The position numbers were made by a program, and so were the translations under genes. 64,000 bases of DNA. It comes from Vicinamibacterales bacterium. GTDB lineage: Bacteria; Acidobacteriota; Vicinamibacteria; Vicinamibacterales; UBA8438. The stretch covers positions 3,395,293 through 3,459,292 of the forward strand of contig OZ244838.1 of assembly GCA_965220695.1 (NCBI GenBank), given 5' to 3'. Position 1 is the stretch's first letter. Each line of letters opens with the position of its first letter. A model generated the notes under the pieces. It searched no databases. It saw only the letters and a list, made by a program, of their open reading frames with translations, and was not told where the DNA came from. Positions 517-47,330 of the stretch are shown here, in pieces.

Positions 517-660
517 CTCCGTCTCAGTATTGTCCCGCATAGCGGGTGACAACCTGCCTCAGGCAACACCTGCGCCCCCGCCCGCATGCTCCTTCGCCGC
601 ACCTGAATCCAAGAGGCTCGTCGCCACTCTCGGTGCGACGCGGCGTGTTGCTGCGGGCGG
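517..660 (-). repeat. diverged copy of the same element filling the rpsE-rpmD spacer
   Basis: The right end ctcggtgcgacgcggcgtgttgctgcgggcgg|ctag aligns with the family right TIR and abuts the rpsE TAG. Internal catgctccttcgcc box. Left TIR not recognisable. Confidence 0.5.
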
Positions 661-1173
661 CTAGGCCGTCAAATCCTCTACATCGACACCACGCAACCGC
701 GCCACGGCGACGGGGTCCTTGAGTTCGGTCAACCCGGTGAACGTTGCGCGCACGACGTTATGCGGATTGTCAGTCCCGAGTGACTTCGTGAGGATGTTCT
801 GTATGCCCGCCGATTCCATGACGGCACGCACTGCACCCCCCGCGATGATGCCTGTACCTTCCCGAGCCGGCTTCAAGAGGACCCGTCCCGCACCGAACCG
901 GCCGACGATGGTGTGCGGAATCGTGGTTCCACTCAGCGGCACACGCACCAGCCCCTTCTTGGCGGCATCGATACCCTTCTTGATCGCCGATGGAACCTCC
1001 TTGGCCTTGCCGACGCCGAATCCCACGACTCCGTGGGTGTCACCTACCACGACCAGCGCACTGAAGCTCAAGTTCTTGCCACCCTTGACGACCTTGGTCA
1101 CCCGGTTGATCGAGACGACCGTGTCCTTGAGGTCGAACTCCCCAGCGTCGATCTTCGTTCGTATCCTATTCAT
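661..1173 (-). CDS. rpsE: 30S ribosomal protein S5
   Basis: ORF 661..1230 with [24 protein letters not shown] motif. Start set to ATG 1173 ([13 protein letters not shown]...), AGGA 8 nt upstream. The upstream ORF part lies in a repeat element. Confidence 0.9.
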
Positions 1174-1187
1174 AAGGCCGTTCCTGG

Positions 1188-1356
1188 CAGCCCGTGGCAA
1201 AAGCCCCGCTGCATTCGGTCGACGCTGCATCCCGCCGACCCGTGTTGTTCATCGGTTGCATACCGCCGGCATGGTCCCTCTTTTCGCCTTACGTTGACCG
1301 GACGCGGCATCATTACAACCAAAGCTCGGTGCAACGCGGGGTTCCACCACGGGCTG
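1188..1356 (-). mobile_element. MITE-like TIR element, near-intact copy (169 bp) between rplR stop and rpsE RBS
   Basis: Ends cagcccgtggcaaaagccccgctgcattcgg ... ctcggtgcaacgcggggttccaccacgggctg are inverted repeats. Flanked by ctgg (left) and ctag (right; its TAG is the rplR stop). Shares internal boxes with 14741-14922 and 44747-44944. Confidence 0.8.
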
Positions 1357-1731
1357 CTAGAACTTCAGTCCAGCACCGCGAGCTGCACCCGCAACTTCGC
1401 GCACACGTCCGTGATACAGAAAGCCGCCACGGTCGAACACCACGCTGGAGATCCCCTTCTCAAGCGTCCTTTCGGCCACGACACGGCCAATAACCTGTGC
1501 CCCGGCCACGTTCCCTCCACTTGCTCCAGCAGGGAGGCTCGCCTTGACACCCGGCTCGGTGCTTGATGCGGACGCCAGGGTCGTGCCGGTCGTGTCGTCA
1601 ATCACCTGGGCAGAAATGTGCGCCAGGCTGCGAAACACGGCCAATCTCGGTCGCTCGGTCGTACCCTTGACCGCCTTGCGTTGCCGCAGCGCGATCCTCA
1701 GACGTCGATCCTTCTTTGTCTTGACCTTCAT
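1357..1731 (-). CDS. rplR: 50S ribosomal protein L18
   Basis: ORF 1357..1761 with [20 protein letters not shown] motif, ends GLKF. Start set to ATG 1731 ([12 protein letters not shown]...); the track start at 1761 is a TTG. Confidence 0.9.
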
Positions 1732-1765
1732 CACACGTTCCAACCGCCACGTAAGGAGCAACTAC

Positions 1766-1910
1766 TCATGGCACCAAGCCTGCGACATTGGCCGGGCGCA
1801 GCGTCCGCGTTGCACGACATTGTTCCAAGGTCAATTGCGCCCGAAATGCTCCCTCTTCTCACCTCCCGCACCGCCGATCTCGATCCGGCGCGGGGTTCTG
1901 CCACGGTCTG
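1766..1910 (-). repeat. diverged full-length copy between rplF stop and rplR
   Basis: Right end gatctcgatccggcgcggggttctgccacggtctg|ctat abuts the rplF TAG. Internal aatgctccctcttc box. Weak left TIR tcatggcaccaagcctgcgacattgg preceded by ctac. Confidence 0.6.
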
Positions 1911-2447
1911 CTATGCCCCGGTCTTGCCCTCTTTCTTTTTCAACACCTCGCCGGTGTAACGGATGCCCTTCTGCTTGTAGGGATCCGGCTTCCGGAGACT
2001 CCGAATGTCCGCGGCAACCTGACCCACCGCCTGCCGGTCGATCCCGGTCACAACGAGATGCGTTTGGTTATCGACCGCTACGCCGATCCCGCTCGGAATC
2101 TCGAAGATGACCGGATGTGAAAAACCGAGTGCCATCGTGAGCCTCTGGCCGGCAACCTCCGCCCTGTATCCGATGCCCACGATGTCGAGCTCCTTCTTGA
2201 ACCCCTCTGACACCCCGGTCAGCGCGTTGGCAACCAGACTCCGCGCCAAGCCGTGGAACTTTCTCAGCGCACGGTCCTCGCGCTCCGGCTTCGCCTCCAG
2301 CCGGCCATCGTTCATCTCAATGACGATGCCCGGCGGAAGCGCCTGACGCAACGTGCCCTTCGGCCCCTTGACCTCAACCGCCTCAGGTGAGATCTGGACC
2401 GTGACCCCGCTCGGGATCGGCATCGGCATCTTGCCCACTCGCGACAT
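1911..2447 (-). CDS. rplF: 50S ribosomal protein L6
   Basis: ORF-track 178 aa, [19 protein letters not shown]...GIGYRA...; spc operon position. Confidence 0.95.
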
Positions 2448-2465
2448 AACTTGACTCCGTCACAC

Positions 2466-2876
2466 CTACCAGACGTTGCACAACACTTCGCCGCCGACAC
2501 CGTTCTTCACCGCATCACGTCCGGTCATCACGCCTTGCGACGTTGTGAGAATGCTCGTTCCGAGACCGCTCAACACCGGTGGCACATCGTCTCGTCCGAA
2601 ATACACGCGCCGACCGGGTCGACTGACACGCTGAATCCCCGAGATGACATTCTCGCCACGCGACCCGTATTTGAGCTGGATACGGACCATCGAACGAGCG
2701 GCCTGCCCCGTCTCGACGACGACGTCAACTACCTTGAAGGCCCGGATGTAGCCCTCGTGCTGCAGAACCCGGGCGAGTTCCATCTTTAGCCGCGATGCCG
2801 GAATATCGACGCGCTTTCGACGCGCAGATGTCGCGTTGCGGATTCTCGACAACATGTCGGAAATCGGATCAGTCAT
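2466..2876 (-). CDS. rpsH: 30S ribosomal protein S8
   Basis: ORF-track 136 aa, MTDPISDMLSRIRNA...GGEVLCNVW. Confidence 0.95.
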   Translation of the reverse strand: MTDPISDMLSRIRNATSARRKRVDIPASRLKMELARVLQHEGYIRAFKVVDVVVETGQAARSMVRIQLKYGSRGENVISGIQRVSRPGRRVYFGRDDVPPVLSGLGTSILTTSQGVMTGRDAVKNGVGGEVLCNVW

Positions 2877-2935
2877 GGCTGTTCAAGTCTTGTACTCGTC
2901 GGGGCGCCCCGCGTTTAGCGGGCGGCCCGTTCCCG

Positions 2936-3121
2936 TCACCAACTACTCTTCGTGACCCCGGCGATGTCGCCTTCAAGCGCCAACTTCCTGAAGCACAGCC
3001 GGCACAGCTCGAACTTTCGCATGAAAGCGCGCGGCCGGCCGCACAGCCGGCACCGGTTTCGGAGTCGGGTCTTGTGCTTGGGCGGTTTGCTTTCCTTGAC
3101 GATCTTCGCAGTCGTAGCCAT
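2936..3121 (-). CDS. rpsN: 30S ribosomal protein S14, short type-Z (zinc-binding) form
   Basis: Internal ATG 3121 of ORF 2936..3244 gives 61 aa [61 protein letters not shown] with CxxC...CxxC. Confidence 0.9.
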
Positions 3122-3204
3122 CACTGTCCTCGTTACCATCCCTACCAGGCTTCTCCCGGAGGGACGAGCCTGAGCGCCGTTGTGAACCCACTGGCGGCCT
3201 GGCA

Positions 3205-3250
3205 CAGCGCCGATCACGGTGCCACCCGCGGTTCCCCCCCCCACGGACTG
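3205..3250 (-). repeat. right-TIR fragment of the element after rplE stop (contains a C9/G9 run)
   Basis: gccgatcacggtgccacccgcggttcccccccccacggactg|ctag aligns with the family right TIR. Its TAG is the rplE stop. Confidence 0.5.
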
Positions 3251-3793
3251 CTAGTTCGTTCGGAACGGCATCCCCATCAACTGGAGCAGCCGCCGCCCTT
3301 CCTCGTCCGTCCTGGCAGTCGTGACCACAGAAATATTCATACCGCGCGACTTGTCGACCTTCATGTAGTCGATCTCGATGAACATCAACTGGTCACGGAG
3401 CCCGAGAGTGTAGTTCCCACGTCCGTCGAACCCTTTGGGCGACACACCCCGAAAGTCGCGCACTCGCGGAAGCGCGATCGAGATCAACCGGTCAAGGAAT
3501 TCGTACATCCGGTCTCGACGCAGCGTGACGACGGCGCCTATGGGCATGCCCTGCCGCACTTTGAATTGCGCCACCGACTTTCGCGCGCGGGTGGTCAACG
3601 GCTTCTGACCGGTGATTCGGGCCAGATCGTCGCTCCCCGCGTCAATCAGCTTCCCGTTTTGCGTCGCCTCGCCCAGCCCCATGTTCACTACGATCCGCTG
3701 AACCTTCGGCACCGCCATCACGTTGGTGTACCGAAATTCCTTCGTGAGGGCGGGCACGACCGTTTCTTGATACCGCTCTTTCAATCGGCTCAT
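3251..3793 (-). CDS. rplE: 50S ribosomal protein L5
   Basis: ORF-track 180 aa, [20 protein letters not shown]...MGMPFRTN. Confidence 0.95.
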
Positions 3794-4122
3794 CTATCGA
3801 CGACCCCATCGCATTTGCGACAAATCCGTACTTTCCGACCGTCACCGAGCAGCCGACGCCCGATCCGAGTGGTTGCGCCGCACTCGGGGCAGACGAGTTG
3901 TACGTTCGAGGCATGCAACGGCGCCTCGCGCTCGACCACCCCACCCTTCACGTTCCGGGCCGGATTGGGACGAGTGTGGCGCTTGACGAAGTTCACACCT
4001 TCGACGATCAACCGGTTCTTCCCCGGCACCAACTGCAACACACGACCACGTTTACCGCGGTCCTTGCCCGAAACCACGACGACGTCGTCGTTCTTCCGGA
4101 TCGGTGTCTGAATGCTCGACAT
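3790..4122 (-). CDS. rplX: 50S ribosomal protein L24 with C-terminal CxxC...CxxC
   Basis: ORF 3790..4134. KOW-type N-terminus ([19 protein letters not shown]) and C-terminal CPECG...CRKCDG. ATG 4122 preferred (AGGAG just upstream); GTG 4134 is the alternative. Overlaps the rplE start by 4 nt. Confidence 0.88.
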
Positions 4123-4175
4123 GACTCCTACCACTCATCGGATGACCGGCACTGCAACCTCTCGATATGCTTCGC

Positions 4176-4544
4176 TCACAGCACCTCCGGCGCAAGGGAG
4201 ACTATCTTCATGAATTTACGCTCGCGCAACTCGCGTGCGACCGGACCAAAGACACGAGTGCCGATCGGCTCACCTTGCTCGTTCACCAGCACCGCCGCAT
4301 TCCCGTCGAATCGGATATAGCTCCCGTCCCGCCGGCGATGTTCCTTGCTGGTCCGCACGATGACCGCGCGCACGACCTGCCCTTTCTTCACGGCCGACGA
4401 CGGCGCCGCCTCCTTGACCGAGGCGGTAACAAGATCCCCGAGCCGCGCATAACGTCCGGTCGCGCCACCGAGCGGATTAATCACCGCGAGCTTTCGGGCA
4501 CCGGAGTTGTCCGCCACGTCGAGAATCGATTGCATCTGGATCAT
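4176..4544 (-). CDS. rplN: 50S ribosomal protein L14
   Basis: ORF-track 122 aa, [19 protein letters not shown]... Confidence 0.95.
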
Positions 4545-4560
4545 GATCGGATCTCGCTCG

Positions 4561-4827
4561 TCAAATCGCCTGAGCTCGTTCGACTACCCGGATCACGGCC
4601 CAGCGCTTGCGTCGGCTCAGCGGACGTGTCTCGACGATGGCCACCACGTCCCCCACCTTCGCGGCATTTTCGGAGTCATGGGCCATGAACTTCGAGGTAC
4701 GTCGCTGGATCTTGCCGTAGAGTTCGTGCCGCACACGGCGTTCCACCGCCACCACGACGCTCTGATCCATCCTGTCGCTTATCACCACGCCCTGAACTTC
4801 TGCCTTGGTTCCCATATCTTTGTCCAA
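4561..4827 (-). CDS. rpsQ: 30S ribosomal protein S17
   Basis: ORF-track 88 aa, ...[29 protein letters not shown]... Confidence 0.9.
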
Positions 4828-4830
4828 CGG

Positions 4831-5055
4831 CTACGCGTCGGTGTCAGTCGCCGCGGCTCCACCGGCGATCGCGTGCTCCCGCAACAGCGTCTTTATTCGT
4901 GCCATGTCGCGCCTGCTCTCCTGCAGCTTAACTGACGCATCCTGCTGCCCCATGGAGTGCCGAAGTCGCAGCCGGAACAACTCCTCGGCCAGCTCCTGCT
5001 CCCGTTGCTCAAGGGCGGCCACGCCGAGTTCACGCAACTCCACGATCTTGGTCAT
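4831..5055 (-). CDS. rpmC: 50S ribosomal protein L29
   Basis: C-terminal 74 aa of ORF 4831..5361 ([37 protein letters not shown]...). ATG 5055 overlaps the rplP stop (ATGA). Confidence 0.88.
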
Positions 5056-5477
5056 GACGACTCGGCCTTCTCCAACCGGGTCGCGAACTTCGTATGGATC
5101 GGCAGCTTCGCCGCGGCCAGTTGCATCGCCCGCTTGGCGACCGACGCCTCCACACCTTCCATCTCGAACAAAATCCGACCAGACTTGACAACCGCCACCC
5201 ATTGTTCTGGAGATCCCTTGCCCTTGCCCATCCGCGTTTCCTGGGGCTTCTTGGTGACGGGTTTGTCCGGAAATATGCGGATCCAGATCTTGCCGCCGCG
5301 CTTGATGAAACGGGTCATTGCGACGCGCGCCGCCTCGATCTGCCGATCCGTCAACCAGCATGGCTCCATCGCACGAAGGCCGTAGTCACCGAAAGACACC
5401 GTCGAGCCACGCCATGCCTTTCCGGTCATGCGGCCCCGATGCTGTTTCCGATGTTTCACCTTTTTTGGCATCAACAT
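5052..5477 (-). CDS. rplP: 50S ribosomal protein L16
   Basis: ORF-track 141 aa, [21 protein letters not shown]... Confidence 0.95.
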
Positions 5478-5590
5478 GACGAAGTACCCTCAAGTGCGAT
5501 CATCGTCCGATCGGGTGCGGCGTCGATACCGACCACACCACCGATCTCGGTGCGACGCGGGGTTTCACCACGGGCTGCTACCACAGGCTG
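5478..5590 (-). repeat. truncated copy (stop-proximal TIR plus SD-like box) filling the rpsC-rplP spacer
   Basis: gatctcggtgcgacgcggggtttcaccacgggctg|cta, then an extra 10-nt tip ccacaggctg before the rpsC TGA. In operon sense, GAGATCGGTGGTG...TTGAGGGTACTTCGTC-ATG(rplP) matches the interior of other copies. Confidence 0.6.
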
Positions 5591-6271
5591 TCAGGTTCTG
5601 GCGCCCCGTCGCGGTGCTCGATACTCTTCATCGCGCGCCAACCGGGGCTCATGCCGATCGCCCTTGTACAACCACACCTTCACACCGATTTGCCCGTACG
5701 TGGTGTTTGCCTCCGCAAACCCGTAGTCCACATCCGCCCGCAGGGTCTGCAGCGGCAACTGACCGTGCAGATACCATTCGTTTCGCGCGATCTCCGCGCC
5801 GTTCAACCGTCCTCCGACACGGATCTTGATTCCCCGTGCGCCGAATCGTAGCGCCGATTCGACCGCCTTGCGCATTGCCCGGCGGAACGCGACCCGTTTG
5901 ACGAGCTGCAGCGCCACCGACTCGCTGATGAGCTGCGCGTCAAGTTCAGGCTTTTGAATTTCCTGAATATTGATGAAGACCTCACGCTTGGTCCGCTTTT
6001 GGATCTCGGTCTTGAGCTTGTCGACTTCAGTGCCCTTCCGCCCGATGATGATGCCCGGCCGGGATGTGCAGATGTCGATCTTCAACTTGTTCGCGGCGCG
6101 CTCGATCTCGATCTTCGATACCCCCGCGTGCGCGAACCGCTTCTTCAGATCTGCGCGCAACGCGAGATCTTCATGAAGGAGCTTCGCGTAGTCGCGGTCG
6201 GCATACCAACGTGACCGCCACGTCTTGTTGAAACCGAGCCTGAATCCGTATGGATGTACCTTCTGCCCCAT
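5591..6271 (-). CDS. rpsC: 30S ribosomal protein S3
   Basis: ORF-track 226 aa, [24 protein letters not shown]... Confidence 0.95.
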
Positions 6272-6356
6272 ATAGCCAACCCCGCGCCCGCGGGCGCTGT
6301 CCCCTACTCCAACCCCTCGGCCGTCGTCTCTGTCGCGGTCTGACTGGCGACCTTCC

Positions 6357-6770
6357 TCACTGGCGCTTCGCCGTCTCGGCCTCGCCGCTGCCTGGCAATG
6401 CCGGCGACGGGACGCGCGTTACAATCTCGGACCGCTCAGCTACCTTGACCGTGAGATGTGCAGTGCGTTTGACAATCCGAAACGCCCGCCCCATGGGTGC
6501 CGGCCGGATTCGCTTCATCGACGGCCCCTGATCGGCGAAACAATGGGACACGTACATCCGCTCGGCATCGCCGCTGGCCCCATCTTTCTGCTGCGCGTTC
6601 GCGACCGCCGAGCGCAGGACCTTCTCTATGTCCCGAGCGATGCGCTTGCGGGCGAACCGCAGGATGGACAGTGCACGGTCTACATCTTGTCCCCTGATGA
6701 GATCCATCACCAGCTTGGCCTTTTGCGCCGATGTCCGGACAAATCGGGCCGTGGCGCGCCCTTCGATCAT
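6357..6770 (-). CDS. rplV: 50S ribosomal protein L22
   Basis: ORF-track 137 aa, [27 protein letters not shown]..., with a C-terminal extension. Confidence 0.9.
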
Positions 6771-6776
6771 CGTCTG

Positions 6777-7064
6777 CTACCTCTTGACGGCCGCAGCCTT
6801 GTCACGTCTTCCGGTGTGTCCTCGAAACAGCCGCGTCGGGGAGAACTCGCCCAGCTTGTGGCCGACCATGTTCTCGGTGAGATACACCGGTACGAATTTC
6901 TTGCCATTGTGTACGGCGATGGTGTGTCCGACCATTTCCGGAACAACCGTGGATCGCCGTGACCAGGTCTTGATCACTCTCCGGTCCCCCGCCCGGTTCA
7001 TAATCTCGACCTTTTCCAGCAACGGCAGGTCCACGAACGGTCCCTTTCTCAGCGATCGACTCAT
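6777..7064 (-). CDS. rpsS: 30S ribosomal protein S19
   Basis: ORF-track 95 aa, [12 protein letters not shown]...[10 protein letters not shown]... Confidence 0.95.
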
Positions 7065-7104
7065 ACACGCCTCGTCTCAAATCCCACGCTCAAGGCCAAG
7101 TCCG

Positions 7105-7935
7105 TCACTTACGTCGTTTCCGGCGTTGGGTTATGAATTTGTCGGACGGCTTCCGGCCGCGAGTCTTGTACCCCTTGGTTGGCACACCCCAGGGCGTCAC
7201 TGGATGGCGTCCGCCAGCAGAGCTGCCTTCGCCACCTCCCAGCGGGTGGTCGACCGGATTCATCGCCACCCCGCGAACAGTGGGTCTGCGACCTAGCCAC
7301 CGCGCGCGACCGGCCTTGCCGAGCGACACGTTTTCGTGATCGACATTGCCGACCTGGCCAACGGTGGCCATGCATTCCTTCAATATCCGCCGCACCTCGC
7401 CGGATGGCATACGCAGCGAAGCGTAGTTGCCCTCCTTCGCGATCAACTGAACGGACGATCCCGCGCTACGGGCGATCTGACCGCCCTTGCCCGGCTTCAA
7501 CTCCACGTTGTGGAGCTGGGTGCCAAGTGGAATGTTCTTCAATGGCAACGCGTTGCCCGGCAGAATATCGACCGCGTCGCCGGCCACGACCGTGTCGCCG
7601 ACTGAGACCCGCGCCGGCTGCAGGATGTAGCGCTTGTCGCCGTCGGCGTAGGCCACCAACGCGATGCGGGCGGAACGGTTCGGATCGTACTCGACGCTGG
7701 ACACTGTACCGGGCACGTCCTTCTTGTTGCGCTTGAAATCGATGATTCGGTAGGTCCGTTTGTGCCCACCGCCACGCTGCCACATCGTGACCCGGCCGCG
7801 GTTGTTGCGACCGCCGGACTTTGGCAACGGCTCGGTCAAAGGCTTGTACGGTTTCGTTGCGGTGATATCGTCGAACGTCTGCACCGTCTGAAACCGCCGT
7901 CCCGGCGATGTGGGCTTGTATTGGCGAATTGTCAT
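7105..7935 (-). CDS. rplB: 50S ribosomal protein L2
   Basis: ORF-track 276 aa, [16 protein letters not shown]...[18 protein letters not shown]... Confidence 0.95.
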
Positions 7936-7978
7936 GGTCCTGTGCGGCTCTTGTCGCTAGTCGATTCGCGTGATCCGT

Positions 7979-8269
7979 CTATGCGCCTTCCAGGAATTCC
8001 GGAATGCTCTCACCGTCCCGCAACCGCACGTACGCTTTCTTCCAATCGGGGCGCTGGCCGATGAATCGCCCCTGCCGCTTGATCTTGCCATGGCTGATAG
8101 CCGTGCGGACGCTTGCCACTTTCGCACCCAGCAACCGCTCGACCGCCTGCTTGATCTCAACCTTGGTCGCCCGCATTGCCACCTCGAGCACGACAGTCCG
8201 GCCGTCTTCGCGCTGCAACGTCGTCTTCTCGGTAATGAGCGGCCGCCGAATCACGTCGGTCTCTTTCAT
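7979..8269 (-). CDS. rplW: 50S ribosomal protein L23
   Basis: ORF-track 96 aa, ...[16 protein letters not shown]... Confidence 0.92.
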
Positions 8270-8889: not shown

Positions 8890-8914
8890 GGCCGCAATCC
8901 GTCCATCGCTACGA

Positions 8915-9984: not shown

Positions 9985-11179
<1,195 letters not shown>

Positions 11180-13286: not shown

Positions 13287-13430
13287 CACTGTGTCCGTTC
13301 GTGACTGCTTGTGTCTCGCAACACTGGCGACGGCGACCGGCGGTGGACTCTTCAACTCTGCTGTTGCCACTTGTCTACTATGACCTGCTCTTCTCTTCTA
13401 ATCGAGACACCGCCGACGGACCAGGAATGC
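13287..13430 (-). repeat. possible decayed copy in the rpsG-fusA spacer
   Basis: Operon sense TCGGCGGTGTCTCGATTAGAAGAGAAGAGCA resembles TCGGCGGTGCGGGAGGTGAGAAGAGGGAGCA of copy 1766-1910. No TIRs recognisable. Confidence 0.3.
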
Positions 13431-14296: not shown

Positions 14297-14740
14297 AAGC
14301 ACTCCCTGCGTCGATGACGCTACGGCATCCAGGCCGTCGGACCAGGACGCCAACGACAAATCACCCCAGGCCTGAAAGCCACCGGCTTCGCACCTGAGGC
14401 GGGTTGACCCTATTAGTGTGTGCGCGCTGTAAGGGAAATCCGTACCCCACAAACTGCCGGGTCGGTCGCTCCCAAGCTGGAAAGAGGCGAATCGCGCATC
14501 CCTGTGACCTCTTCGCGGTGCGCCGACACAGGCGCCCGGCGCACCGTCGGCCACACGGCCTCTTTCGGACGGATCGAAGTTAGATAGGGTGTCCTAACTC
14601 CGACAGAACCTTGCGAGGTTACCACGTTCGTCCTGATCCACGCAACAATTGCGCCGGCCCGGTCTTTCCGTTCTCCGATGGCCGCAACATTCCGAAACCG
14701 CACACCGGCGTCCGATTTCATTACCGCACCGATGCGCTGG

Positions 14741-14922
14741 CAGCACGCGATGAAAGCCCCGCAGCATTCGCTCGGCGCTGCATCCCGCAAAGAGCGTCGC
14801 TGGGCGTCTGATCGCCGAGGGCACACACGTCCCAATGCGCTCCCTCTTCGTGCCGTGCACTGGCCGGGCGCGACGTTATGACGAACAGATCTCGGTGCAC
14901 CGCGGGGTTTCACCACAGGCTG
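14741..14922 (-). mobile_element. MITE-like TIR element, near-intact copy (182 bp) immediately after rpoC stop
   Basis: cagcacgcgatgaaagccccgcagcattcg ... ctcggtgcaccgcggggtttcaccacaggctg. Flanks ctgg / ctat (its TAG is the rpoC stop). Internal gctgcatcccgc and gctccctcttcg boxes shared with the other copies. Confidence 0.8.
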
Positions 14923-23535: not shown

Positions 23536-23633
23536 CAGCGAGGACCGACGCCGCGCTGCATTCGACGAAACCGCGGCCGTCGTGACACATGATCGCGGCG
23601 GGCAACCACCCGCCGCCATAGCGCCAACGACGG
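23536..23633 (-). repeat. left-half copy in the rplL-rpoB spacer
   Basis: ctgg|cagcgaggaccgacgccgcgctgcattcgacg aligns with the family left TIR (ctgg|cagcccgtggcaaaagccccgctgcattcgg). The rest, up to the rplL TAG, is diverged and includes hairpin ggcgggcaaccacccgcc. Confidence 0.5.
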
Positions 23634-24605: not shown

Positions 24606-24672
24606 TCGATTATCTATCCTTAACGTGCACGGCACCTTTCCCGGCGCCACACAGGATTCTCATCATGGACTG

Positions 24673-27062: not shown

Positions 27063-28257
<1,195 letters not shown>

Positions 28258-28351
28258 TGTCCGCTCACTCTGACGTCAATGCACCTGTTTCGGTGACTGG
28301 CCGTTCTCCGTCACCCGCCTCACCACCCCAGAGGATCTGGGCCTTGAACGC

Positions 28352-28794: not shown

Positions 28795-29182
28795 GATGAC
28801 ATCGACCTCAGCGGCCGTTGTACTTTCGTTCTTCTCGTTTGTCGCCGATTCCGCCCCGGCGGGCGCGTGGCCGCCTTGCGGTCACCTGTTCACTCGTGCC
28901 GTATCACAGACTGCGGACGAATCGCAGTGAGGGACACCATCAAACCGATATCTGCTGCTTGGAATACTCCATCGCGGCGCCGGATGGCGCTCGCTTGACG
29001 ATCGGATGGCGGCCTCCCCCTCGCAGCGGCGCCTGACCGTGAAACCAAGATGGCAGCGTTGCTCTCCCCTGGAGTATCGCCCCCGTTTACAGGGCGCTAC
29101 GACTGACCAACTCGGCACTGCGACCTTGACGCGACCGGAGCCCGCCGATCCGGCTCACACACCCGTGAAGTGTCAACGTTCC

Positions 29183-35787: not shown

Positions 35788-35826
35788 CTATTTCGCTCCG
35801 TCGCGGCATGCGCCCCCACGGACGCG
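35788..35826 (-). repeat. collapsed remnant directly upstream of rplI (tip plus SD-like box)
   Basis: Operon sense CGTCCGTGGGGGCGCATGCCGCGACGGAGCGAAATAG-ATG. GTCCGTGGGGG matches the tip of copy 3205-3250; CGCGACG-GAGCGAAAT matches the box CGCGACGAGGGAGCAAAT of copy 44747-44944. Confidence 0.35.
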
Positions 35827-39293: not shown

Positions 39294-39368
39294 TGGTTGG
39301 GGCGGAAGGATTCGAACCTTCGAATACGGGATCCAAAGTCCCGCGCCTTACCACTTGGCCACGCCCCA
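39294..39368 (-). tRNA. tRNA-Gln (anticodon TTG)
   Basis: Hand-folded: acceptor TGGGGCG/CGCCCCA, anticodon loop CTTTGGA, GGTTCGAATCC T-arm, CCA encoded. Confidence 0.9.
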
Positions 39369-39380
39369 TCCCCAGGGGTC

Positions 39381-39462
39381 CGGCTCGGAAAGTACCCTCG
39401 TCGCGTCTTGCCGGTCGCGTGCAGCACGTGATCGGCACCACCCGCGACAGCACCAGGGGTTG
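39381..39462 (-). repeat. right-half copy between ispE and tRNA-Gln
   Basis: gtaccctcgtcgcgtcttgccggtcgcgtgcagcacgtgatcggcaccacccgcgacagcaccaggggttg aligns along its length with gctccctcgtcgcgccttgccacgcgggcgcagcgccaatctcggtgcaacgcggggtttcaccacgggctg (44868-44944 region). Confidence 0.5.
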
Positions 39463-39539
39463 GCGGCAGGCCTCCCGGTCGCCGACGCAAACTTCTATGC
39501 TATCGCGGGTGATCCAACCTGGGCAAGAGCCCCGTCGAG

Positions 39540-40448: not shown

Positions 40449-41281
40449 TTCGAACCCGGCGACGACTCGTCCGCAGGAGACGCCTCGAGCGGCCCGGCTC
40501 GCCGCAGGTCCAGGAGCGTCATCGGCATGACATCTGGCGGCAGGTCGATGATGAACGCCTGGTCGGAGATCGGGATGTTCAGATTGACCTGGGACAGAGT
40601 GGCAACAAGATCGGTCAGCGGTCGGTTCTCGGCCCCGGGCTCCATGGCCGCCGAGATCACTCGCACGTGCCGCGGAATACCCCGGCGGAAATCGCCGTAC
40701 TCGATCGTCAACCCGTCGCGTGTGCCGGCGACCAGTTGGTGCACACCATCCACCCGCCGAAGATACGCCACCGCCCCCCCAGCAAGATCGACTGCGGTCC
40801 ACCCGTCATAATCGCGTCCAGCGACCGGTTCAGGGTCCGGCACGAGACACCCGGTAAGTACCGCGCGTAGGTCGGCCGGACTCAACGACACCCCGGTGAG
40901 ACTCTCCAGCATATCCGCCGCCGGCACACCCGTCAGTACACGGCCCTCACGGGTCAACCACAACAGCGCTTCGCCCGGTCGAGCCACGAGATAGAAGCCG
41001 GGAGTCCCGAACGGCGCCAGACCCTCGAGACGCACTGACCCGGGAGCCGCGAGCCCAGCCCGGATCCGACCGTTGAGATCGGTGCCGCCACCGCGTCCGC
41101 GAAGCCGAATGAGCGCTTCAATGGTTCGGATGTTCCGGCATTCCTCCACGACCGGACGAAACACCGACTCGAAATCGGGCAGTGGTATCCCGGGTCCCCG
41201 CGGCAACGCCAAACGCGGCTGAGCGCAGCCGGCCACGACCACGAGCAGGATCGCTGTCGGGATGATACGGATGCCGGTCAT
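40445..41281 (-). CDS. LolB-like / DUF4292-like outer-membrane lipoprotein
   Basis: ORF 40445..41650. ATG 41281 gives MTGIRIIPTAILLVVVAGC (signal peptide plus lipobox). The position upstream of ispE-prs mirrors lolB-ispE-prs synteny. Family assignment rests on context only. Confidence 0.6.
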   Translation of the reverse strand: MTGIRIIPTAILLVVVAGCAQPRLALPRGPGIPLPDFESVFRPVVEECRNIRTIEALIRLRGRGGGTDLNGRIRAGLAAPGSVRLEGLAPFGTPGFYLVARPGEALLWLTREGRVLTGVPAADMLESLTGVSLSPADLRAVLTGCLVPDPEPVAGRDYDGWTAVDLAGGAVAYLRRVDGVHQLVAGTRDGLTIEYGDFRRGIPRHVRVISAAMEPGAENRPLTDLVATLSQVNLNIPISDQAFIIDLPPDVMPMTLLDLRRAGPLEASPADESSPGSK

Positions 41282-41321
41282 CGGTCGCCGCGACGGGCCA
41301 CCGCGGGAAAAGTGCCGGACC

Positions 41322-43172
41322 TCACCTGGCTTGCCGAGCGCGCGCGGCGTCGAGCTTCCGCTCGATCTCAGCCCGTTCGACGCCGTCGCCGTCACCAGCC
41401 AGCGCGCGTTCCCAGGCCGTGATCGCCTCGGCATAGCGTTCGAGCCTGTACAGGAGATCGCCCAGGTGGTCCTGGACCACCGAATTGTTTCGAAGCTGGT
41501 TACCGGCCTGCCGCAACGGCGGCTCAGCCAACTCGAGCCGGTCCTGTTTGAAGTACGCCCATCCGAGACTGTCAAGATATGAGCCGTTGTTCGGATCCAG
41601 TTCGAGCGCCCGCTGAATGAGATCGACCGATTCGTCGAGCCGCTCGCCACGCTCGGCTAGCATGTATCCCAGGTAGTTCAATGTCTGGGCGTCATCGGGG
41701 TCTCGCTCCAATACACGTCTGAACGCGCGTTCCGCCTCGCCAAAACGCTGTCCCCGCTCGAACACGGCACCCAGCTGGAAGACGATGAGCGTGTTCCTCG
41801 GAAACTGGACCTCTGCTGCAGTCAATACACGCACCGCATCATCGACCCGGTCATGCTCGCTGTACAGATTTGCCAGCGCGACATGCGCAATCGGTTCTGC
41901 CGGAAGGCGATCGAGCGCACCCTCCAGGACCGCGACCGCCTCGGCGAGGTCTCCCCGAGCCGACAAGGTCTGCGCCTGGAGTCGAAGCAACGCCAGGTTG
42001 TCCGGACGGTCGCGGCGAGCTCGGGCGACGATATCCTCTGCGTCGTCATACCGACCAGCCGAGAGATAGGCCTGCGCCAACTGCGCTTGAAGACGCAGAT
42101 CCGACGGCACCAGTGCCAGCGCCGCAACCAGACTCTCAATGGCGGCGTCCTGGTCCCCGAGTTGTACGTGCGCCGCGCTCACGCTCTGTAGCAGGCTCGC
42201 GATCTGTTCAGGTGCGTCCCGGGCCGCCCTGGCCCTGTCGATCACGGGTTCAATCGTTTCGATCATCGACTGGTAGCGCCCGAGAGCTCCAAGCCCCCGA
42301 GCCAGCATGAACGGCCCCCGCAGCCCATCCGGTTCCAACTCGGTCACCCGGCGAGCCGCCGCCACAGCACCATCGAAATTGTCGAGTTGAAACTCGATCT
42401 GCGACAAGGAAAACCAACCACCTGCGTCATCCGGTCTGGCCCGCACGAGGTTCCGCAGCACCTCGAGCGCTCGTTCCATCTGACCGGCATTTACCAATGC
42501 GGCAGCGAGTTGGCGACGGTATCTGACGTTGCGGGAGCCCCCAAGGATCGCGCGCTCGTAGGCGGCCACCGCTTCGTCCCACCGCCCCTCCGCCTCGTAC
42601 GCCTGGGCAAGCAGCGCAAGCGCTTCGGCGAATTGCGGCTCCGCGTCGATCACCTCATTCAACACGTCGATCGCGGCCGACACGTTCTGGGAAACGAGGT
42701 AGAGTCGACCGAGCGTCAAATACAGGGCGAGATCTGGAGACTGCGGGTCGCGAGCACGCTCCAGGTGATCGACGGCCCGGTCGAGGTCCTCAGGACCAGC
42801 TCCGCGCGAACCTGCGCGAGCGGCGAACACCAGCCCGAGAATGCGGTGCGCCTCCCTGTTCTCGGGATCCAACTCAAGCGCCGCGTCGGCTGCATCGAGT
42901 GCTTCATCGCTCCGATTGGCACGAGCAAAGAGTCCCGCCAGTTCGGCCTGAATATCCGCCGCGTTCGGGTCGAGCGCGGCAGCGCGACGATGCGCGGCAG
43001 CTGCTCCGTCGACATCCCCGTCAGCTTCCAGCGACCGTCCCAGGATGAACGCATGATACGCCGCGGCGCGGTCCTCCGCGGAGGGCTGGCTTTGCGCTTG
43101 CGCCTCGGCGCGTGTCGGCACTCCAGGGGCGAGAACCGCAATGCATGAGATGAAAAAGCATAGAAACCGCAT
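41322..43172 (-). CDS. secreted tetratricopeptide-repeat (TPR) protein
   Basis: ORF 41322..43388. ATG 43172 gives the signal-like MRFLCFFISCIAVLAPGVPTRAEA. Many A..Y/LG..Y..G..D.A TPR-type repeats. Confidence 0.8.
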   Translation of the reverse strand: MRFLCFFISCIAVLAPGVPTRAEAQAQSQPSAEDRAAAYHAFILGRSLEADGDVDGAAAAHRRAAALDPNAADIQAELAGLFARANRSDEALDAADAALELDPENREAHRILGLVFAARAGSRGAGPEDLDRAVDHLERARDPQSPDLALYLTLGRLYLVSQNVSAAIDVLNEVIDAEPQFAEALALLAQAYEAEGRWDEAVAAYERAILGGSRNVRYRRQLAAALVNAGQMERALEVLRNLVRARPDDAGGWFSLSQIEFQLDNFDGAVAAARRVTELEPDGLRGPFMLARGLGALGRYQSMIETIEPVIDRARAARDAPEQIASLLQSVSAAHVQLGDQDAAIESLVAALALVPSDLRLQAQLAQAYLSAGRYDDAEDIVARARRDRPDNLALLRLQAQTLSARGDLAEAVAVLEGALDRLPAEPIAHVALANLYSEHDRVDDAVRVLTAAEVQFPRNTLIVFQLGAVFERGQRFGEAERAFRRVLERDPDDAQTLNYLGYMLAERGERLDESVDLIQRALELDPNNGSYLDSLGWAYFKQDRLELAEPPLRQAGNQLRNNSVVQDHLGDLLYRLERYAEAITAWERALAGDGDGVERAEIERKLDAARARQAR

Positions 43173-43293
43173 AACGGTCAGATTGTTCCACAACAGACTA
43201 CCGTCGGACAACCGGGACCACCCCAAGGCGCACGTGCCGGCCGCGCGGAACAGTCTGATATAGTCTGCCTGTCCGAGATCGAAGAGGAGCCGC

Positions 43294-43464
43294 ATGGGTG
43301 TCGACGCAGAATTATTGAGCATTCTGGCCTGCCCGGAATGCAAGACCCCGGTCGTGCTGGTGCACGACGGCAGCGCCTTGAAATGCACCGCCTGTCACCG
43401 CGTGTATCCGATCAAGGACGACATCCCGGTGATGCTCGTTGAAGAAGCCACCGTCGAGGAGTAG
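43294..43464 (+). CDS. Trm112 / UPF0434 (YcaR-like) small zinc-ribbon protein
   Basis: Not in ORF track (56 aa). Hand translation: MGVDAELLSILACPECKTPVVLVHDGSALKCTACHRVYPIKDDIPVMLVEEATVEE*. GAGGAG 4 nt before the ATG. Confidence 0.85.
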   Translation: MGVDAELLSILACPECKTPVVLVHDGSALKCTACHRVYPIKDDIPVMLVEEATVEE

Positions 43465-43478
43465 GGACCGACACCACC

Positions 43479-44681
43479 GTGGACATGCGTGCGTTCCTTG
43501 ACGCCGACGACGGCGAACCCACGCTGGAAACGGCGGCGTATGCGGCACTTCTGGCCTTCGTCGTTGCGCTGCAGATTTCGATTGCAGCCTCTGGCATCCT
43601 GCTGACCATTACTCTCGGATGCTGGATCGGCCTGCTCATCACCCGCAATGAGCGTCCGTCGGCACCACCCTTCTTCGTGGCGCTGCTGATCTACGCGGTG
43701 CTGACCCTCGTCTCGGTGGCGTTCTCGCTCGACCCCGGAATAAGCATCGTCGACTCGAAGGAGGTACTGCTGTTTCTCGTGGTACCGGTCGTGTTCCGAC
43801 TAGCCAGTGGTCGGCGAGCTCAAACGGTGGCGACGGTTATCGTCACCGTGGGTGCCGCCAGCGCCGTGTTCGGCGTGGTGCAGTACGGCATCTTCGAGTA
43901 CGACAACCTGGGCCAGCGCCCCTCCGGTTCGATGGGGCACTACATGACATACTCCGGCCTGCTTGTGCTGGTGCTCGCGCTGGCGGGGGCGCGGCTCCTG
44001 TTCGACACGAAGGAGCGCATCTGGTCCCTTCTGGTCATGCCGGCGCTGCTGGTCGCCCTGGCGCTCACGTTCACCCGCAGCTACTGGATCGGCGCCGGCG
44101 CCGCACTCAGTCTGCTATTCGTGTTGCGAGATTTCAGGCTGCTCGCGGTGATTCCGGTGCTGGCGGCACTGTTCCTCGTGCTTGCACCGCCGCAGATCAC
44201 GGCCCGCTTCTACTCCACCTTCGACCCGCAGGACCCGACCGCCAGAGATCGGTTCGCCATGGCCCGATCTGGAATCCGGATCATCCGTGACCATCCGATT
44301 ACCGGCGTCGGTCCCGACATGGTCAAGGAGGTGTATCCCGACTATCGCGACGCCGGCGCAGTGCAGGACGAAAACCCGCACCTGCACAACGTGCCGCTGC
44401 AGATCGCAGCCGAACGCGGTCTGGCCGCCCTTGCCTCGTGGCTCGTCTTCTTGTGCCTGCTGCTGCGCGACCTGTTCCGTCTGTTTCGCAACGACCACAC
44501 GCGGCCACTGGCGGCGGCAGGTCTGGCCGCGGTGACAGGGATGCTGACCGGCGGGTTGTTCGAATACAACTTCGGTGATTCGGAATTCCTGATGTTGTTC
44601 CTGGTGATCGCGACTCTGCCACTGGCCGCGGCCCAAGACCGGGAATCCCTGCCGGCTGCCGCCGACCGCGCCGTCACGTAG
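43479..44681 (+). CDS. O-antigen ligase (Wzy_C) family polytopic membrane protein
   Basis: ORF-track 400 aa (GTG start). About 10 hydrophobic segments; ...FTRSYWIGAGAAL... and NPHLHNVPLQIAAERG motifs typical of the family. Confidence 0.75.
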   Translation: MDMRAFLDADDGEPTLETAAYAALLAFVVALQISIAASGILLTITLGCWIGLLITRNERPSAPPFFVALLIYAVLTLVSVAFSLDPGISIVDSKEVLLFLVVPVVFRLASGRRAQTVATVIVTVGAASAVFGVVQYGIFEYDNLGQRPSGSMGHYMTYSGLLVLVLALAGARLLFDTKERIWSLLVMPALLVALALTFTRSYWIGAGAALSLLFVLRDFRLLAVIPVLAALFLVLAPPQITARFYSTFDPQDPTARDRFAMARSGIRIIRDHPITGVGPDMVKEVYPDYRDAGAVQDENPHLHNVPLQIAAERGLAALASWLVFLCLLLRDLFRLFRNDHTRPLAAAGLAAVTGMLTGGLFEYNFGDSEFLMLFLVIATLPLAAAQDRESLPAAADRAVT

Positions 44682-44746
44682 CTCGCCGGACGCGGGAGCC
44701 GACCTCGTCCCCACCACCAGACACCCCCCAGCGGGTGTGCGGCTAG

Positions 44747-44944
44747 CAGCCCGTGGTGAAAGCCCCACTGCATTCGATCCCCGCTGAATTCTGCGCTTCC
44801 CCGCGGAATTCTGCTGTTTCACGCTGCATCCCGCGTGGCGGCGTTGCTCCTCGGTCACAAATGCCCCAATTTGCTCCCTCGTCGCGCCTTGCCACGCGGG
44901 CGCAGCGCCAATCTCGGTGCAACGCGGGGTTTCACCACGGGCTG
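44747..44944 (-). mobile_element. MITE-like TIR element, best-preserved copy (198 bp), flanked by CTAG on both sides
   Basis: The terminal 15 nt are perfect inverted repeats (cagcccgtggtgaaa / tttcaccacgggctg). ctag at 44743-44746 and 44945-44948 (the latter holds the purH TAG stop). Carries two extra tandem 20-mers at 44779-44818. Confidence 0.85.
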
Positions 44945-46561
44945 CTAGTGCCTGAAGTGCCGGCGCCCGGTGAACACCATGGCGATGCCGTGCTCATTCG
45001 CGGCGTTGATCACCTCCTCGTCGCGAACGGAGCCACCGGGCTGAACAACCGCTTTGGCGCCAGCCGAGGCAATGGCATCGAGGCCGTCCCGGAACGGAAA
45101 AAACGCGTCCGACGCGGCGGCCGTACCGGACAGGCCGGTTGTCGCCTTCATGACAGCCACATTGACTGCGTCGACCCGACTCATCTGACCGGCACCGATC
45201 GCAGCCAGCCTGTCCGCGGTGGCAAAGACAATCGCATTCGACTTGACGTGCGCGCAGACCCGCCACGCCATGCGCAACGCCGCCCACTCCTCGCCGGTCG
45301 GCTGCCGGGTGGTGACGACCCGGCGATCATCTCCGGCGGCAGTCTGGCCCACGCGGCCCCACGCAGACGCCGCTTCGGTCACCCGATCGTAGCGCTGGAC
45401 GAGAATCGCCCCCAGGATGGAGCGCACTTCCCGGAACATCGGCAGATCCGACGCGCCGTTCCGGCAGTCCGCCAGGACCACGCGCAGGTTCTTCTTCGTC
45501 GTGAACACCGCACGGGCTTCCACGTCGGCGTCTGGTGCGACTACCGCTTCGATGAAGGTCGACGTGATCTCCCTGGCCGTGTCACGGTCGATCGGGCGAT
45601 TCAGACCTACGATGCCGCCAAACGCCGACAGCGGATCAACCTCGCGCGCGGCCACGTAAGCCTCGCGCAGCGACGGCGCGGTGGCCACTCCGCATGGATT
45701 CATGTGCTTCACTACAACCGCTGCCGGCTCTTCGAACTCGCTGATCAGCCTCGCCGCCGCGTCGAGATCCAGCAGATTCGTGAACGAGAGCTCCTTCCCC
45801 TGCACGACCTCGGCGCCGCCGAACCCCCGCGGGCCGGCGCCATACATGGCCGCAATCTGGTGCGGATTCTCGCCATACCGCAAGCGGCGTTGCCGCACCG
45901 CTTCCAGAACCAGCGTGTCGGGGACCAGCTCATCGGAGGACGAGGTCCCGCGTGAGAAGACACCGTCGTTGACCTCAACCTCGGACAGGGCCCTCGAAAT
46001 CATGGCGTCGTAGGACCGGGTGTGCGAGAACGCCTTGATCGCCAGCGACAACCGGAACTCGGCAGTGGGTCCTCCGGCCCGGTCGAGTTGTTCCATCGTG
46101 CTGCGATAGTCCGCCGGCTCAACCACCACAAGCACATGCTGGAAGTTCTTGGCGGCGGCGCGGACGAGCGTCGGTCCTCCGATGTCAATCTCTTCGACAA
46201 GCGCCTCGACAGTCGTGTCGGGATCGGCAGCGGCCTGCGCGAACGGGTAGAGATTGACGACGACGATGTCGATCGGCTCGATGCCACGGGCTCCGATTGC
46301 CTCCAGATCGCCCTGGCGATCGCGGCGCGCGAGAATGCCGCCGTGTACCGCCGGGTGCAAGGTCTTCACCCTCCCATCCAACATCTCAGGAAACCCGGTG
46401 ACAGAGGACACGGGGGTCACCGGGAGCCCTGCCCGGGCCAGGATTCGCGCGGTGCCACCGGTCGACACGAGTTCGTATCCGCGGGCCTCCAACCCTCGCG
46501 CGAATTCGACGAGATCCGATTTGTCCGACACACTCAACAATGCTCGCATCCGCTCGCTCAC
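44945..46561 (-). CDS. purH: bifunctional AICAR transformylase / IMP cyclohydrolase
   Basis: ORF-track 538 aa, ...[18 protein letters not shown]...GGTA...[12 protein letters not shown]..., ends [12 protein letters not shown] 46561 preceded by GGGAGGAG. Confidence 0.95.
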
Positions 46562-46679
46562 TCTCTCCTCCCTACAGATCGACAGCGCGCCTGTATTCTG
46601 AACTTCTTGTCCGAATCACCACTCCAGCCTCGGGAATCACCGCCGCAATTCGCCCCCACGGTCCCTGTCCCGGGTAATC

Positions 46680-46709
46680 TTGACAACGGTAGACCGGCTT
46701 GGCTACGAT
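46680..46709 (+). promoter_or_regulatory. candidate promoter of the cold-shock gene
   Basis: TTGACA (46680-46685), N18, TACGAT (46704-46709), about 140 nt upstream of the csp ATG. Confidence 0.5.
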
Positions 46710-46737
46710 GCTGCACGGGTATGAGGGTGAGACCCGC

Positions 46738-46761
46738 AGACCGCTCGGGCGGTCTTTTTTT
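46738..46761 (+). terminator. intrinsic-terminator-like hairpin plus T7 inside the csp 5' leader
   Basis: AGACCGC-tcgg-GCGGTCT followed by ttttttt. There is no plus-strand gene upstream to terminate (purH diverges). Confidence 0.55.
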
Positions 46762-46847
46762 GTGCCCCCACGACGGCTCCCGCCGTCCTGGATCTCGTAA
46801 GCCGGGCGACATGCAACGTTGTCCACAAGCAAGTCAGGGGAAGCACG

Positions 46848-47054
46848 ATGCGCATTACAGGCAAAGTCAAATGGTTCAACAACGCCAAGGGGTATGGATT
46901 CATCGAACGTGAAGGCGGCAGTGACGTCTTCGTTCACTTCTCGGCGATTCAGGGCAACGGTTTTCGCACGCTCGAAGAGGGCCAGGCCGTCGAGTTCGAA
47001 ATCGTCGACGGACCCAAGGGCCCGCAGGCCGGGAACGTGACCCGCAGCGAATAA
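46848..47054 (+). CDS. cspA: cold-shock protein (CspA family)
   Basis: ORF-track 68 aa, [34 protein letters not shown]... (RNP1/RNP2 motifs). Confidence 0.95.
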
Positions 47055-47062
47055 CCGCTCCA

Positions 47063-47089
47063 GCCCGGGCGCGCCCATCGCGCCCGGGC
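47063..47089 (+). terminator. GC-rich hairpin 9 nt after csp stop (possible terminator, no U-tract)
   Basis: GCCCGGGCGCG-cccat-CGCGCCCGGGC: perfect 11-bp stem. Confidence 0.4.
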
Positions 47090-47274
47090 AACGTTCCCTC
47101 CCGGTCGCTCCATTCCATTCCCGACTTCACGCGCGTGCACGCCGGCGCCGACTCATGATGCGGCCCACGGTGGCATCCCACCACGGCGCGGTCGGCTGTC
47201 ACATGGGAGACCGACCCGCGGCACCCCGCACGGTTCTGCCAGTTCGACCGGCGCTCGAGAGGCCGGCTCACCGG

Positions 47275-47330
47275 CAGCCCGCGGCAGCAGCCCCACTGCA
47301 TGCGCCCAGTGCTGCGCGCGGTTTTATCAC
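47275..47330 (-). repeat. left-TIR fragment upstream of selA
   Basis: cagcccgcggcagcagccccactgcatgcg aligns with cagcccgtggtgaaagccccactgcattcg. Downstream part diverged. Confidence 0.4.

Follow-up and report, generated by a model that had tools for sequence, protein, structure and literature searches.

A CTAG-inserting miniature element at TAG stop codons of Vicinamibacterales and an insertion sequence with the same ends

MITEPsy1 of Pseudomonas syringae pv. phaseolicola, a miniature inverted-repeat transposable element (MITE) that goes with the IS5-family insertion sequence (IS) ISPsy2, inserts at CTAG or YTAA and is flanked by a 4-nt duplication (PMC3189936). This pair is the closest described precedent found for a repeat family in a 64,000-nt stretch from a Vicinamibacterales bacterium (assembly GCA_965220695.1, contig OZ244838.1, positions 3,395,293 to 3,459,292; the whole stretch is called the window), where non-coding elements lie directly behind the TAG stop codons of ribosomal-protein genes, rpoC and purH. 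The family resembled MITEPsy1 and ISPsy2 in its small non-coding element, in having an IS with matching inverted repeats, in its CTAG target and in its 4-nt duplication. MITEPsy1 is 100 nt long with 18-nt repeats and occurs in few copies in one species, whereas the element described here is 158 nt long, forms a hairpin over its full length and is spread over about 36 species or more; no sequence relationship was found between the two. The elements of this family fold into a hairpin, are flanked by target-site duplications, are lacking from orthologous sites in relatives and have their ends and target in common with a partner IS. The repeats in the window are very probably, for the most part, old and decayed copies of this CTAG-inserting MITE.

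Members of the IS5 group target YTAR or CTAG with a 4-bp duplication. The partner IS was similar to the IS5/IS1182 group in its transposase domains (DUF772 and DDE_Tnp_1), its inverted repeats and its 4-bp duplication of CTAG, but its transposase was longer (456-467 aa) than the IS5-group enzymes and remained below the curated IS1182 and IS5 cut-offs. Correia/NEMIS, ERIC and RUP are abundant intergenic hairpin elements of 100-200 bp that are co-transcribed with neighbouring genes. The element described here is likewise abundant and intergenic and forms long hairpins, whereas Correia/NEMIS, ERIC and RUP have a TA duplication or other targets and partners and show no sequence similarity to it; to our knowledge, none of them has been described at stop codons as a result of targeting CTAG. 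The REP/BIME palindromes with their RAYT proteins are also abundant and extragenic and also follow gene ends, but REPs are 20-40 nt long, lack a target duplication and depend on a Y1 transposase, in contrast to the 4-bp duplication and the DDE partner found here. The kind of element is ordinary, one that works in the manner of an IS5-type MITE, and the family itself is apparently new.

A search of the literature on MITEs of Acidobacteria, on IS1182 with a CTAG target and on MITEs at stop codons showed no description of the family and returned MITEPsy1 as the only precedent. Rfam 15 at the gathering score detected only tRNAs in the whole window, and at E values up to 10 it gave chance matches and nothing relevant for one window copy and one canonical copy. 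The consensus had no match among the PLSDB plasmids, and the 24-nt core of the element had none in the IMG/VR viral scan; because both of these searches were empty, no vector for a spread between orders was identified. Compared with Rfam, plasmids, viruses and the literature, a set to which ISfinder did not belong, the family is apparently undescribed, and the initial annotation of the window, made from its letters alone, had likewise not recognised it. Vicinamibacterales and related Acidobacteriota are dominant and little-studied soil bacteria, and for their annotation an abundant repeat is now delimited and its likely autonomous partner identified.

Anatomy, target-site duplication and empty sites

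The window contains tuf, the secE-nusG-rplKAJL, rpoBC, str, S10 and spc clusters and some biosynthetic genes, which were identified via Pfam; nearly all of the genes are on the minus strand, and the GC content is 60-67%. The family was analysed in sequence loci (labelled L001, L002 and so on), of which L002-L110 comprise 859 kb and form a sample enriched for elements. The loci themselves served to train the codon-usage model by which genes were called. A scan limited to a single genome for each species detected the 24-nt core GGTGRAACCCCGCGNNGCACCGAG in more than 109 stretches from at least about 36 species-level genomes. Among the matches listed, nearly all hosts were metagenome-assembled genomes (MAGs) of Vicinamibacterales, and a few were labelled Bryobacterales or Terriglobia.

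The canonical element has 158 bp, and 59 of the 87 full copies were 155-161 bp long. It starts with CAGCCCGTGGTGAAACCCCGCG and ends with GCGGGGCTTTCGCCACGGGCTG, and its terminal inverted repeats are CAGCCCGTGGTGAAACCCCGC and GCGGGGCTTTCGCCACGGGCTG. The first and last bases were mirrored in 86 of the 87 copies (C...G in 65, G...C in 21, with one exception), which defined a CAG...CTG and a GAG...CTC subfamily; a doubly mirrored end variant, CAGGCCATGG...CCATGGCCTG, was seen in L031. The mean pairwise identity of the canonical copies was 85%, and the consensus was computed to fold into a single hairpin over the entire element with a free energy of -104 kcal/mol. Three boxes that had been noticed in the window copies, GACGAGGGAGC, GCGGGATGCA and CGAATGCAGCGGGGC, turned out to be conserved parts of this consensus. 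The profile gave 155 hits in the 859 kb of loci, and the copy number per genome was estimated at a few hundred by a rough extrapolation from about one extra copy per 20 kb. No gene context was without copies, and 26 copies lay between the starts of divergent genes. In L008, three MITEs stand head to tail from 5882-6201 onward, spaced 162 nt, with CTGC joints instead of CTAG.

Flanks were compared for 88 full copies that came from loci other than the window. CTAG was found on both flanks of 33 copies and on one flank of 15, and in 12 of these 15 the other flank was one base off CTAG. Neither flank was CTAG in 40 copies, of which 15 carried identical direct 4-mers, against a shuffled mean of 1.7 and a maximum of 7. 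These 4-mers were TTGA, CTAT, TTTA, GTAG and ATAG together with TCAG, CTGG, CAAG, TCGA, TCCA and CCAG. The initial annotation had named IS630 and IS5 as alternatives. CTAG is a preferred target of IS630 too, and it is palindromic, so that CTAG on both flanks would by itself fit either a 2-bp or a 4-bp duplication; for an IS630/Tc1-type MITE, only the central TA of CTAG would be duplicated, and the element itself would read GCAG...CTGC. Because several of the duplicated 4-mers (TCAG, CTGG, CAAG, TCGA, TCCA and CCAG) contain no TA, the duplication is of 4 bp and not the 2-bp TA of IS630. The same-ended IS, moreover, encodes a protein with DUF772 and DDE_Tnp_1 whose best models are IS1182 and IS5, and an IS630/Tc1-type origin is very improbable. 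Of the two alternatives, the IS5-like 4-bp duplication is the one that stood.

Empty sites were sought in 55 metagenome loci whose RpsE was 57-94% identical to that of the window. Five junctions that measure 113-183 nt in the window were mostly 0-30 nt in these 55 orthologous ribosomal-protein loci. The spacer between rplR and rpsE was 2-22 nt in relatives, and the spacer 3' of rplF was 0-30 nt in most cases; the closest relatives (L111, L114 and L116) had spacers of 2, 21 and -8 nt. The stop codons of the relatives were at the same position, and many of them were already TAG with a preceding C. Among the ribosomal-protein junctions of the relatives, the element was found only in L119 (full copy) and L115 (3' half), both between rplR and rpsE. 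The remainder of the rpsC-rplP spacer in the window was the native rplP leader GAGGGTAYTTCGTC, which was kept at the empty sites of relatives.

These data also bear on a non-mobile origin, in which a structured RNA or a regulatory DNA motif of ribosomal-protein operons would have been inherited vertically. Strong covariation in the hairpin, the location immediately after stops within operons and the high sequence conservation over many species would all suit such a motif. The orthologous sites were empty in most relatives, however, and the targets were directly duplicated, which refuted a non-mobile motif as the sole explanation. Copies in all gene contexts, also between divergent starts, the tandem copies in L008, the ends in common with an IS and the absence of a match to any Rfam family argue against it as well, and this origin is extremely unlikely. 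The non-autonomous family inserting at CTAG, and hence at TAG stops, that the initial annotation had proposed was borne out: copies aligned significantly and matched a profile built from other genomes, CTAG flanks recurred in copies from many genomes together with 4-nt duplications, and orthologous sites in relatives were empty. At the sequence level, the family has what characterises a MITE, namely a short non-coding element, inverted repeats, a 4-nt duplication, multiple copies with presence/absence differences and a matching autonomous element. The repeat lengthens intergenic spacers and can be mistaken for a regulatory RNA, and strains might be told apart by its presence or absence at given sites.

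An insertion sequence with the same ends

A full-length IS with the same termini and a DDE transposase, which the initial annotation had recommended looking for, was found. Terminus-like 14-mers (571 hits, most of them due to chance in GC-rich coding regions) were paired, MITE-sized pairs were removed and matching flanks were required. The partner IS is 1465-1487 bp long, has the termini of the MITE and was recovered in 12 copies from four subfamilies (L042, L061 and L166-L175). The first pair, at 6352-7816 of L061 and 6013-7477 of L042, came from separate MAGs; both copies were 1465 bp long, 97% identical and had CTAG-type flanks. Ten further copies formed three subfamilies, with transposases 81-88% identical and CTAG on both sides at different genomic sites. 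All 12 copies ended in CAGYCCGTGGTRAA...TTCTRCCACGGRCTG, and the flanks were CTAG/CTAG in 11 of them and CTAA/CTAG in one.

The transposase of 456-467 aa (a 456-aa open reading frame in the L061 and L042 pair) contained the domains DUF772 (PF05598, 64.5 bits, cut-off 23.1) and DDE_Tnp_1 (PF01609, 25.3 bits, cut-off 23). The best NCBIfam models were IS1182 (159.7 bits, cut-off 270) and IS5_4 (83.7 bits, cut-off 140), both under their curated cut-offs, and homologues numbered more than 8000 at E <= 1e-20. Judged from these scores, the transposase is related to the IS5/IS1182 group as a divergent lineage that is assignable to neither family.

The left end of the IS resembled the 5' end of the MITE (GTGGTGAAA), and its right end resembled the MITE 3' end (GTGGCRRAAG). 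Owing to this correspondence of the ends, the sense strand of the MITE is the sense strand of the transposase. The IS was found to adjoin a MITE via a single common CTAG in L061 (7813-7825) and in L166 and L170 (about 2897-3059); the two elements had the same orientation in L061 and opposite orientations in L166 and L170. We infer from the common ends and target that the MITE is mobilised by the transposase of the partner IS. In its active form, the MITE is a 158-bp non-coding element with its two halves paired as a long hairpin, on which the DDE transposase of the 1465-1487-bp IS would act in trans. The MITE inserts at CTAG, or less frequently at a site that differs from it by one base, with duplication of the target.

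Copies in the window and their stop codons

Three intact copies (1188-1356, 14741-14922 and 44747-44944) could be aligned end to end, and the four boxes that the initial annotation had described were common to all of them. A model built from these three copies matched further pieces of the window. An independent scan used a profile of 59 copies from other genomes, in which no window copy was included, and a second scan used a broader profile of 82 copies. Against the profile from other genomes, six copies were secure, two were probable and three were marginal:

44747-44944, minus strand: full copy of 198 bp (E 2e-32, secure; one end, separated by an internal duplication, matched on its own with E 1e-8); the 5' end adjoins the purH TAG stop, with CTAG on both sides (44743-44746 and 44945-48).
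1188-1356, minus strand: full copy of 169 bp between rplR and rpsE (E 1e-30, secure); the 5' end adjoins the rplR TAG stop, and the flanks are CTAG and CCAG.
14741-14922, minus strand: full copy of 182 bp (profile match 14742-14922, E 3e-22, secure) immediately 3' of the rpoC TAG stop; the flanks are ATAG and CCAG.
1767-1910, minus strand: nearly complete diverged copy (match 1768-1909, E 4e-13, secure) immediately 3' of the rplF TAG stop; it covers model positions 2-152, without the 3' terminus.
5530-5590, minus strand: 5' fragment after the rpsC stop (match 5530-5577, model positions 1-48, E 1e-10, secure).
585-660, minus strand: degenerate copy after the rpsE TAG (CTAG) stop (match 585-648, E 1.5e-5, secure).
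3192-3250, minus strand: 5' fragment with a G9 run inside, after the rplE TAG (CTAG) stop (match 3192-3249, E 0.005, probable).
56612-56749, plus strand: degenerate copy between the plus-strand genes thiS and thiG (E 0.005, probable, new).
47275-47316, minus strand: 3'-terminal fragment between csp and selA (match 47276-47316, E 0.05, marginal); it is antisense to both neighbours, which are plus-strand genes.
39389-39445, minus strand: internal fragment with a GACGCGACGAGGG box, upstream of tRNA-Gln (match 39389-39427, E 0.04-0.15, marginal).
24623-24672, minus strand: remnant after the rplA CTAG stop, with GGACTG directly before CTAG (E 0.2-0.5, marginal and statistically unsupported).

Twelve copies had originally been proposed, and most of them were supported by the independent profile, some only marginally. 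The intervals 13287-13430 and 35788-35826 gave no match to the profile from other genomes, and 23536-23633 reached only 2.3 bits and is unsupported. The copy at 1766-1910, taken at first for a diverged or truncated piece, proved real and nearly complete rather than a small fragment. Within 5478-5590, the part at 5530-5590 belongs to the element, and the outer part is the native rplP ribosome-binding region that relatives have at their empty sites. The zero-spacer junctions with TAG were confirmed at all six genes, namely rpsE (661), rplR (1357), rplF (1911), rplE (3251), rpoC (14923) and purH (44945).

The window copies were 169-198 bp long and scored 20-112 bits, whereas full copies from other loci had a median of 153 bits; being longer and far more diverged, they are old insertions. 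The short open reading frames after the Shine-Dalgarno (SD)-like box varied from copy to copy, and no conserved peptide was found. In the 3' arm of the copy at 44747-44944, the motif GAATTC(C/A)GCGGGG was duplicated at 44775-44815, including two EcoRI sites, and it is because of this duplication that the copy measures 198 bp and matches the profile in two pieces. At 5578-5593, 3' of the rpsC stop, the sequence reads TGA CAGCCTGTGG TAG CAGCCCGTGG, so that a 10-nt duplicate of the terminus and a TAG stand ahead of the copy; an insertion that was nested or aborted may have left this duplicate as a scar. The rpsC gene ends in TAG in most relatives. About 440 nt without a called gene (14303-14740) separate the rpoC-proximal element from rpsL.

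CTAG was rare in the window. Only 17 sites were found, compared with 213 expected from base composition, a depletion of about 12-fold, and 36 expected from a second-order model. Five of the 17 sites were stop codons, and all five adjoined a copy or remnant. The 859 kb of loci contained 324 CTAG sites, of which 111, about a third, were flanks of elements; this fraction is an upper estimate in the element-enriched sample, and the element is clearly a large contributor to the CTAG sites of these genomes. The free CTAG sites in the loci comprised 54 at stops, 103 in intergenic sequence and 55 in genes. Stops thus made up about 34% of the free non-genic targets, and 46 of 128 elements (about 36%) ended precisely at a stop codon on one side. 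Given the agreement of these two fractions, homing to stop codons is a by-product of target choice. Three factors explain the association with stops: the element targets CTAG, this tetranucleotide is depleted, and insertions within genes are lost. Nothing in the data pointed to recognition of stop codons as such. The homing that had been proposed earlier is therefore real as a consequence of the CTAG target, but it does not go beyond what is expected from the CTAG sites available.

Where the CTAG target overlaps a TAG stop, an insertion leaves the stop codon and the protein intact, because the upstream one of the two target copies retains a complete TAG. Selection would remove intragenic insertions, and the survivors would be those at stops and at other intergenic CTAGs. 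In the window, the element very probably moved into the junctions of ribosomal-protein genes, rpoC and purH and later decayed, with the stop-proximal end preserved best. Target choice together with depletion of a tetranucleotide can in this way stack transposons on stops without any recognition of the stop codon.

Orientation and hairpin of the element

Several observations weigh against reading the window repeats as decayed copies of an IS-mobilised MITE. The likeness between the IS and the MITE was limited to the outer 15-17 nt, and the MITE is no simple deletion derivative. In the window and in 8 kb of further sequence from L001, no transposase homologue (tblastn with the partner transposase) or full IS was detected; the initial annotation had likewise noted no transposase in the window. 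Unmatched flanks (CTAG/CCAG and ATAG/CCAG), which require later mutation, are seen in two of the three intact window copies. The six secure and two probable window copies are all sense to local transcription, for which P is about 0.01-0.04 under the family ratio. Compensatory change in the interior of the hairpin and an asymmetry between its strands, finally, are not predicted by plain double-strand cut-and-paste.

Orientation was counted over the family with the window copies left out. Between co-directional genes, 42 copies were sense and 32 were antisense (p = 0.30), and the ratio was 11:9, not significant, when both gene distances were at most 60 nt. The element strand relative to GC skew was 42:42 (p = 1.0), which ruled out an orientation linked to replication. 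Relative to the majority gene strand, 45 copies had the same and 26 the opposite orientation (p = 0.03), and the 5' end was on a stop codon in 31 copies and the 3' end in 15 (p = 0.03). The single absolute orientation that had been reported for the window held for the supported copies of the original set, with the extra probable copy at 56612-56749 on the plus strand; as a trait of the family it failed, given the 42 sense and 32 antisense copies elsewhere. For the supported copies, the pattern in the window is better stated as sense to the transcription of the neighbouring genes, and selection in operons of very high expression may lie behind it.

The hairpin was analysed in alignment A1 of 58 canonical copies from loci L004-L110. 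It has 53 pairs, and 98.1% of the cells were paired. Changes on both sides were observed in 23 of the 53 pairs, compared with 11.2 +/- 1.7 in shuffles (none of 500 reached 23) and 5-7 in slid controls, and the double changes included swaps between GC and CG deep inside, beyond the part shared with the IS. G.T was found in 245 cells from 26 pair columns and A.C in 15 cells from 11 columns; these counts and those of covariation refer to cells and not to independent events, and they are inflated by relatedness. In 80 of 82 copies, the sense strand formed the more stable fold of the two strands (-98.5 against -88.9 kcal/mol for the complement), and DNA parameters gave the same direction. The left and right ends differ intrinsically at positions 11-12, which accounts for part of the asymmetry. 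A fold-back step on a single strand, or selection on the RNA of source copies, might underlie the covariation and the asymmetry. Of all features of the family, this covarying and strand-asymmetric hairpin alone might point to a new mechanism. Maintenance of the hairpin on one strand, the transposase-sense strand, either by a single-stranded fold-back of DNA or RNA during propagation or by a cis function of an RNA hairpin with SD boxes after stops, is a tentative and rather unlikely explanation. It would fit the compensatory changes deep inside the transposase-binding ends and the tolerance of G.T where A.C mismatches are not tolerated. A cis function of the sense RNA hairpin would explain why only sense copies occur in the transcripts of ribosomal-protein genes, rpoC and purH.

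In its fuller form, such a cis function would mean that the host has adopted the MITE: a sense RNA hairpin with two exposed, purine-rich SD-like boxes (GAGGGAG and GAGGAG) would act after stops, for instance as a stabiliser of 3' or intercistronic mRNA or as a ribosome standby site, and sense copies would be selected in highly expressed operons. The paired cells and two-sided changes, the greater stability of the sense strand and the excess of G.T over A.C are what this adoption would produce. All eight secure or probable window copies were sense, as were the ribosomal-protein copies in L119 and L115, and the 5' end was on a stop twice as often as the 3' end. The strand asymmetry was nevertheless equal in every gene context and independent of the orientation to flanking genes. 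It therefore stems from the source copies of the family, the master copies from which it was inherited, and not from selection at each locus; RNA selection at the locus level was ruled out by this equal difference in stability across gene contexts. Neither the co-directional nor the tight operon contexts showed a bias, close relatives lacked the element at the same junctions, and the window copies are decaying (20-112 bits against a median of 153). Adoption by the host is accordingly doubtful, with a small though appreciable probability.

A scan of the copies in the ribosomal-protein region (window positions 1-6000) for promoters and terminators revealed no consensus. Two terminator-like stems were detected, one inside the copy at 44747-44944 and one in the fragment at 47276-47316, both on the plus strand and antisense to the element. 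A role as terminator or promoter was rejected on these grounds, since the ribosomal-protein-region copies gave no consensus and the terminator-like matches inside elements were antisense only.

The strand-asymmetric hairpin, the left end that always adjoins a fixed short sequence and the one-strand placement of the window copies would also be expected of a single-strand element of the IS200/IS605 or REP/RAYT-like type, which inserts folded and 3' of a fixed tetranucleotide. The target of the family was duplicated on both sides, however, whereas Y1 (HUH) transposases do not duplicate their target. The ends are true inverted repeats, orientation was balanced against GC skew, the partner encodes a DDE enzyme, and no Y1 or RAYT gene was seen beside any copy. 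A single-strand element is thus extremely unlikely here, and the IS5-type MITE with its partner IS is the reading preferred.

Some further features of the window were noted. The spacer between tRNA-Thr(tgt) and tRNA-Tyr (28795-29182) is 388 nt long, and its best profile match had an E of 0.24, with no recognisable copy. In L018, the closest syntenic genome piece retrieved, from a Vicinamibacterales MAG, the same spacer (6107-6404) holds a 155-bp copy; the spacer of the window is longer and could not be aligned to it. The two tuf genes, at 9988-11178 and 27066-28268, have in common a 300-nt block (9985-10284 and 27063-27362) that is 100% identical, with more identical segments beyond, and the identical blocks of these paralogues suggest gene conversion. 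A 45-nt tandem duplication at 51440-51529, 98% identical and in frame (15 residues), was found within the gene at 50261-51532.

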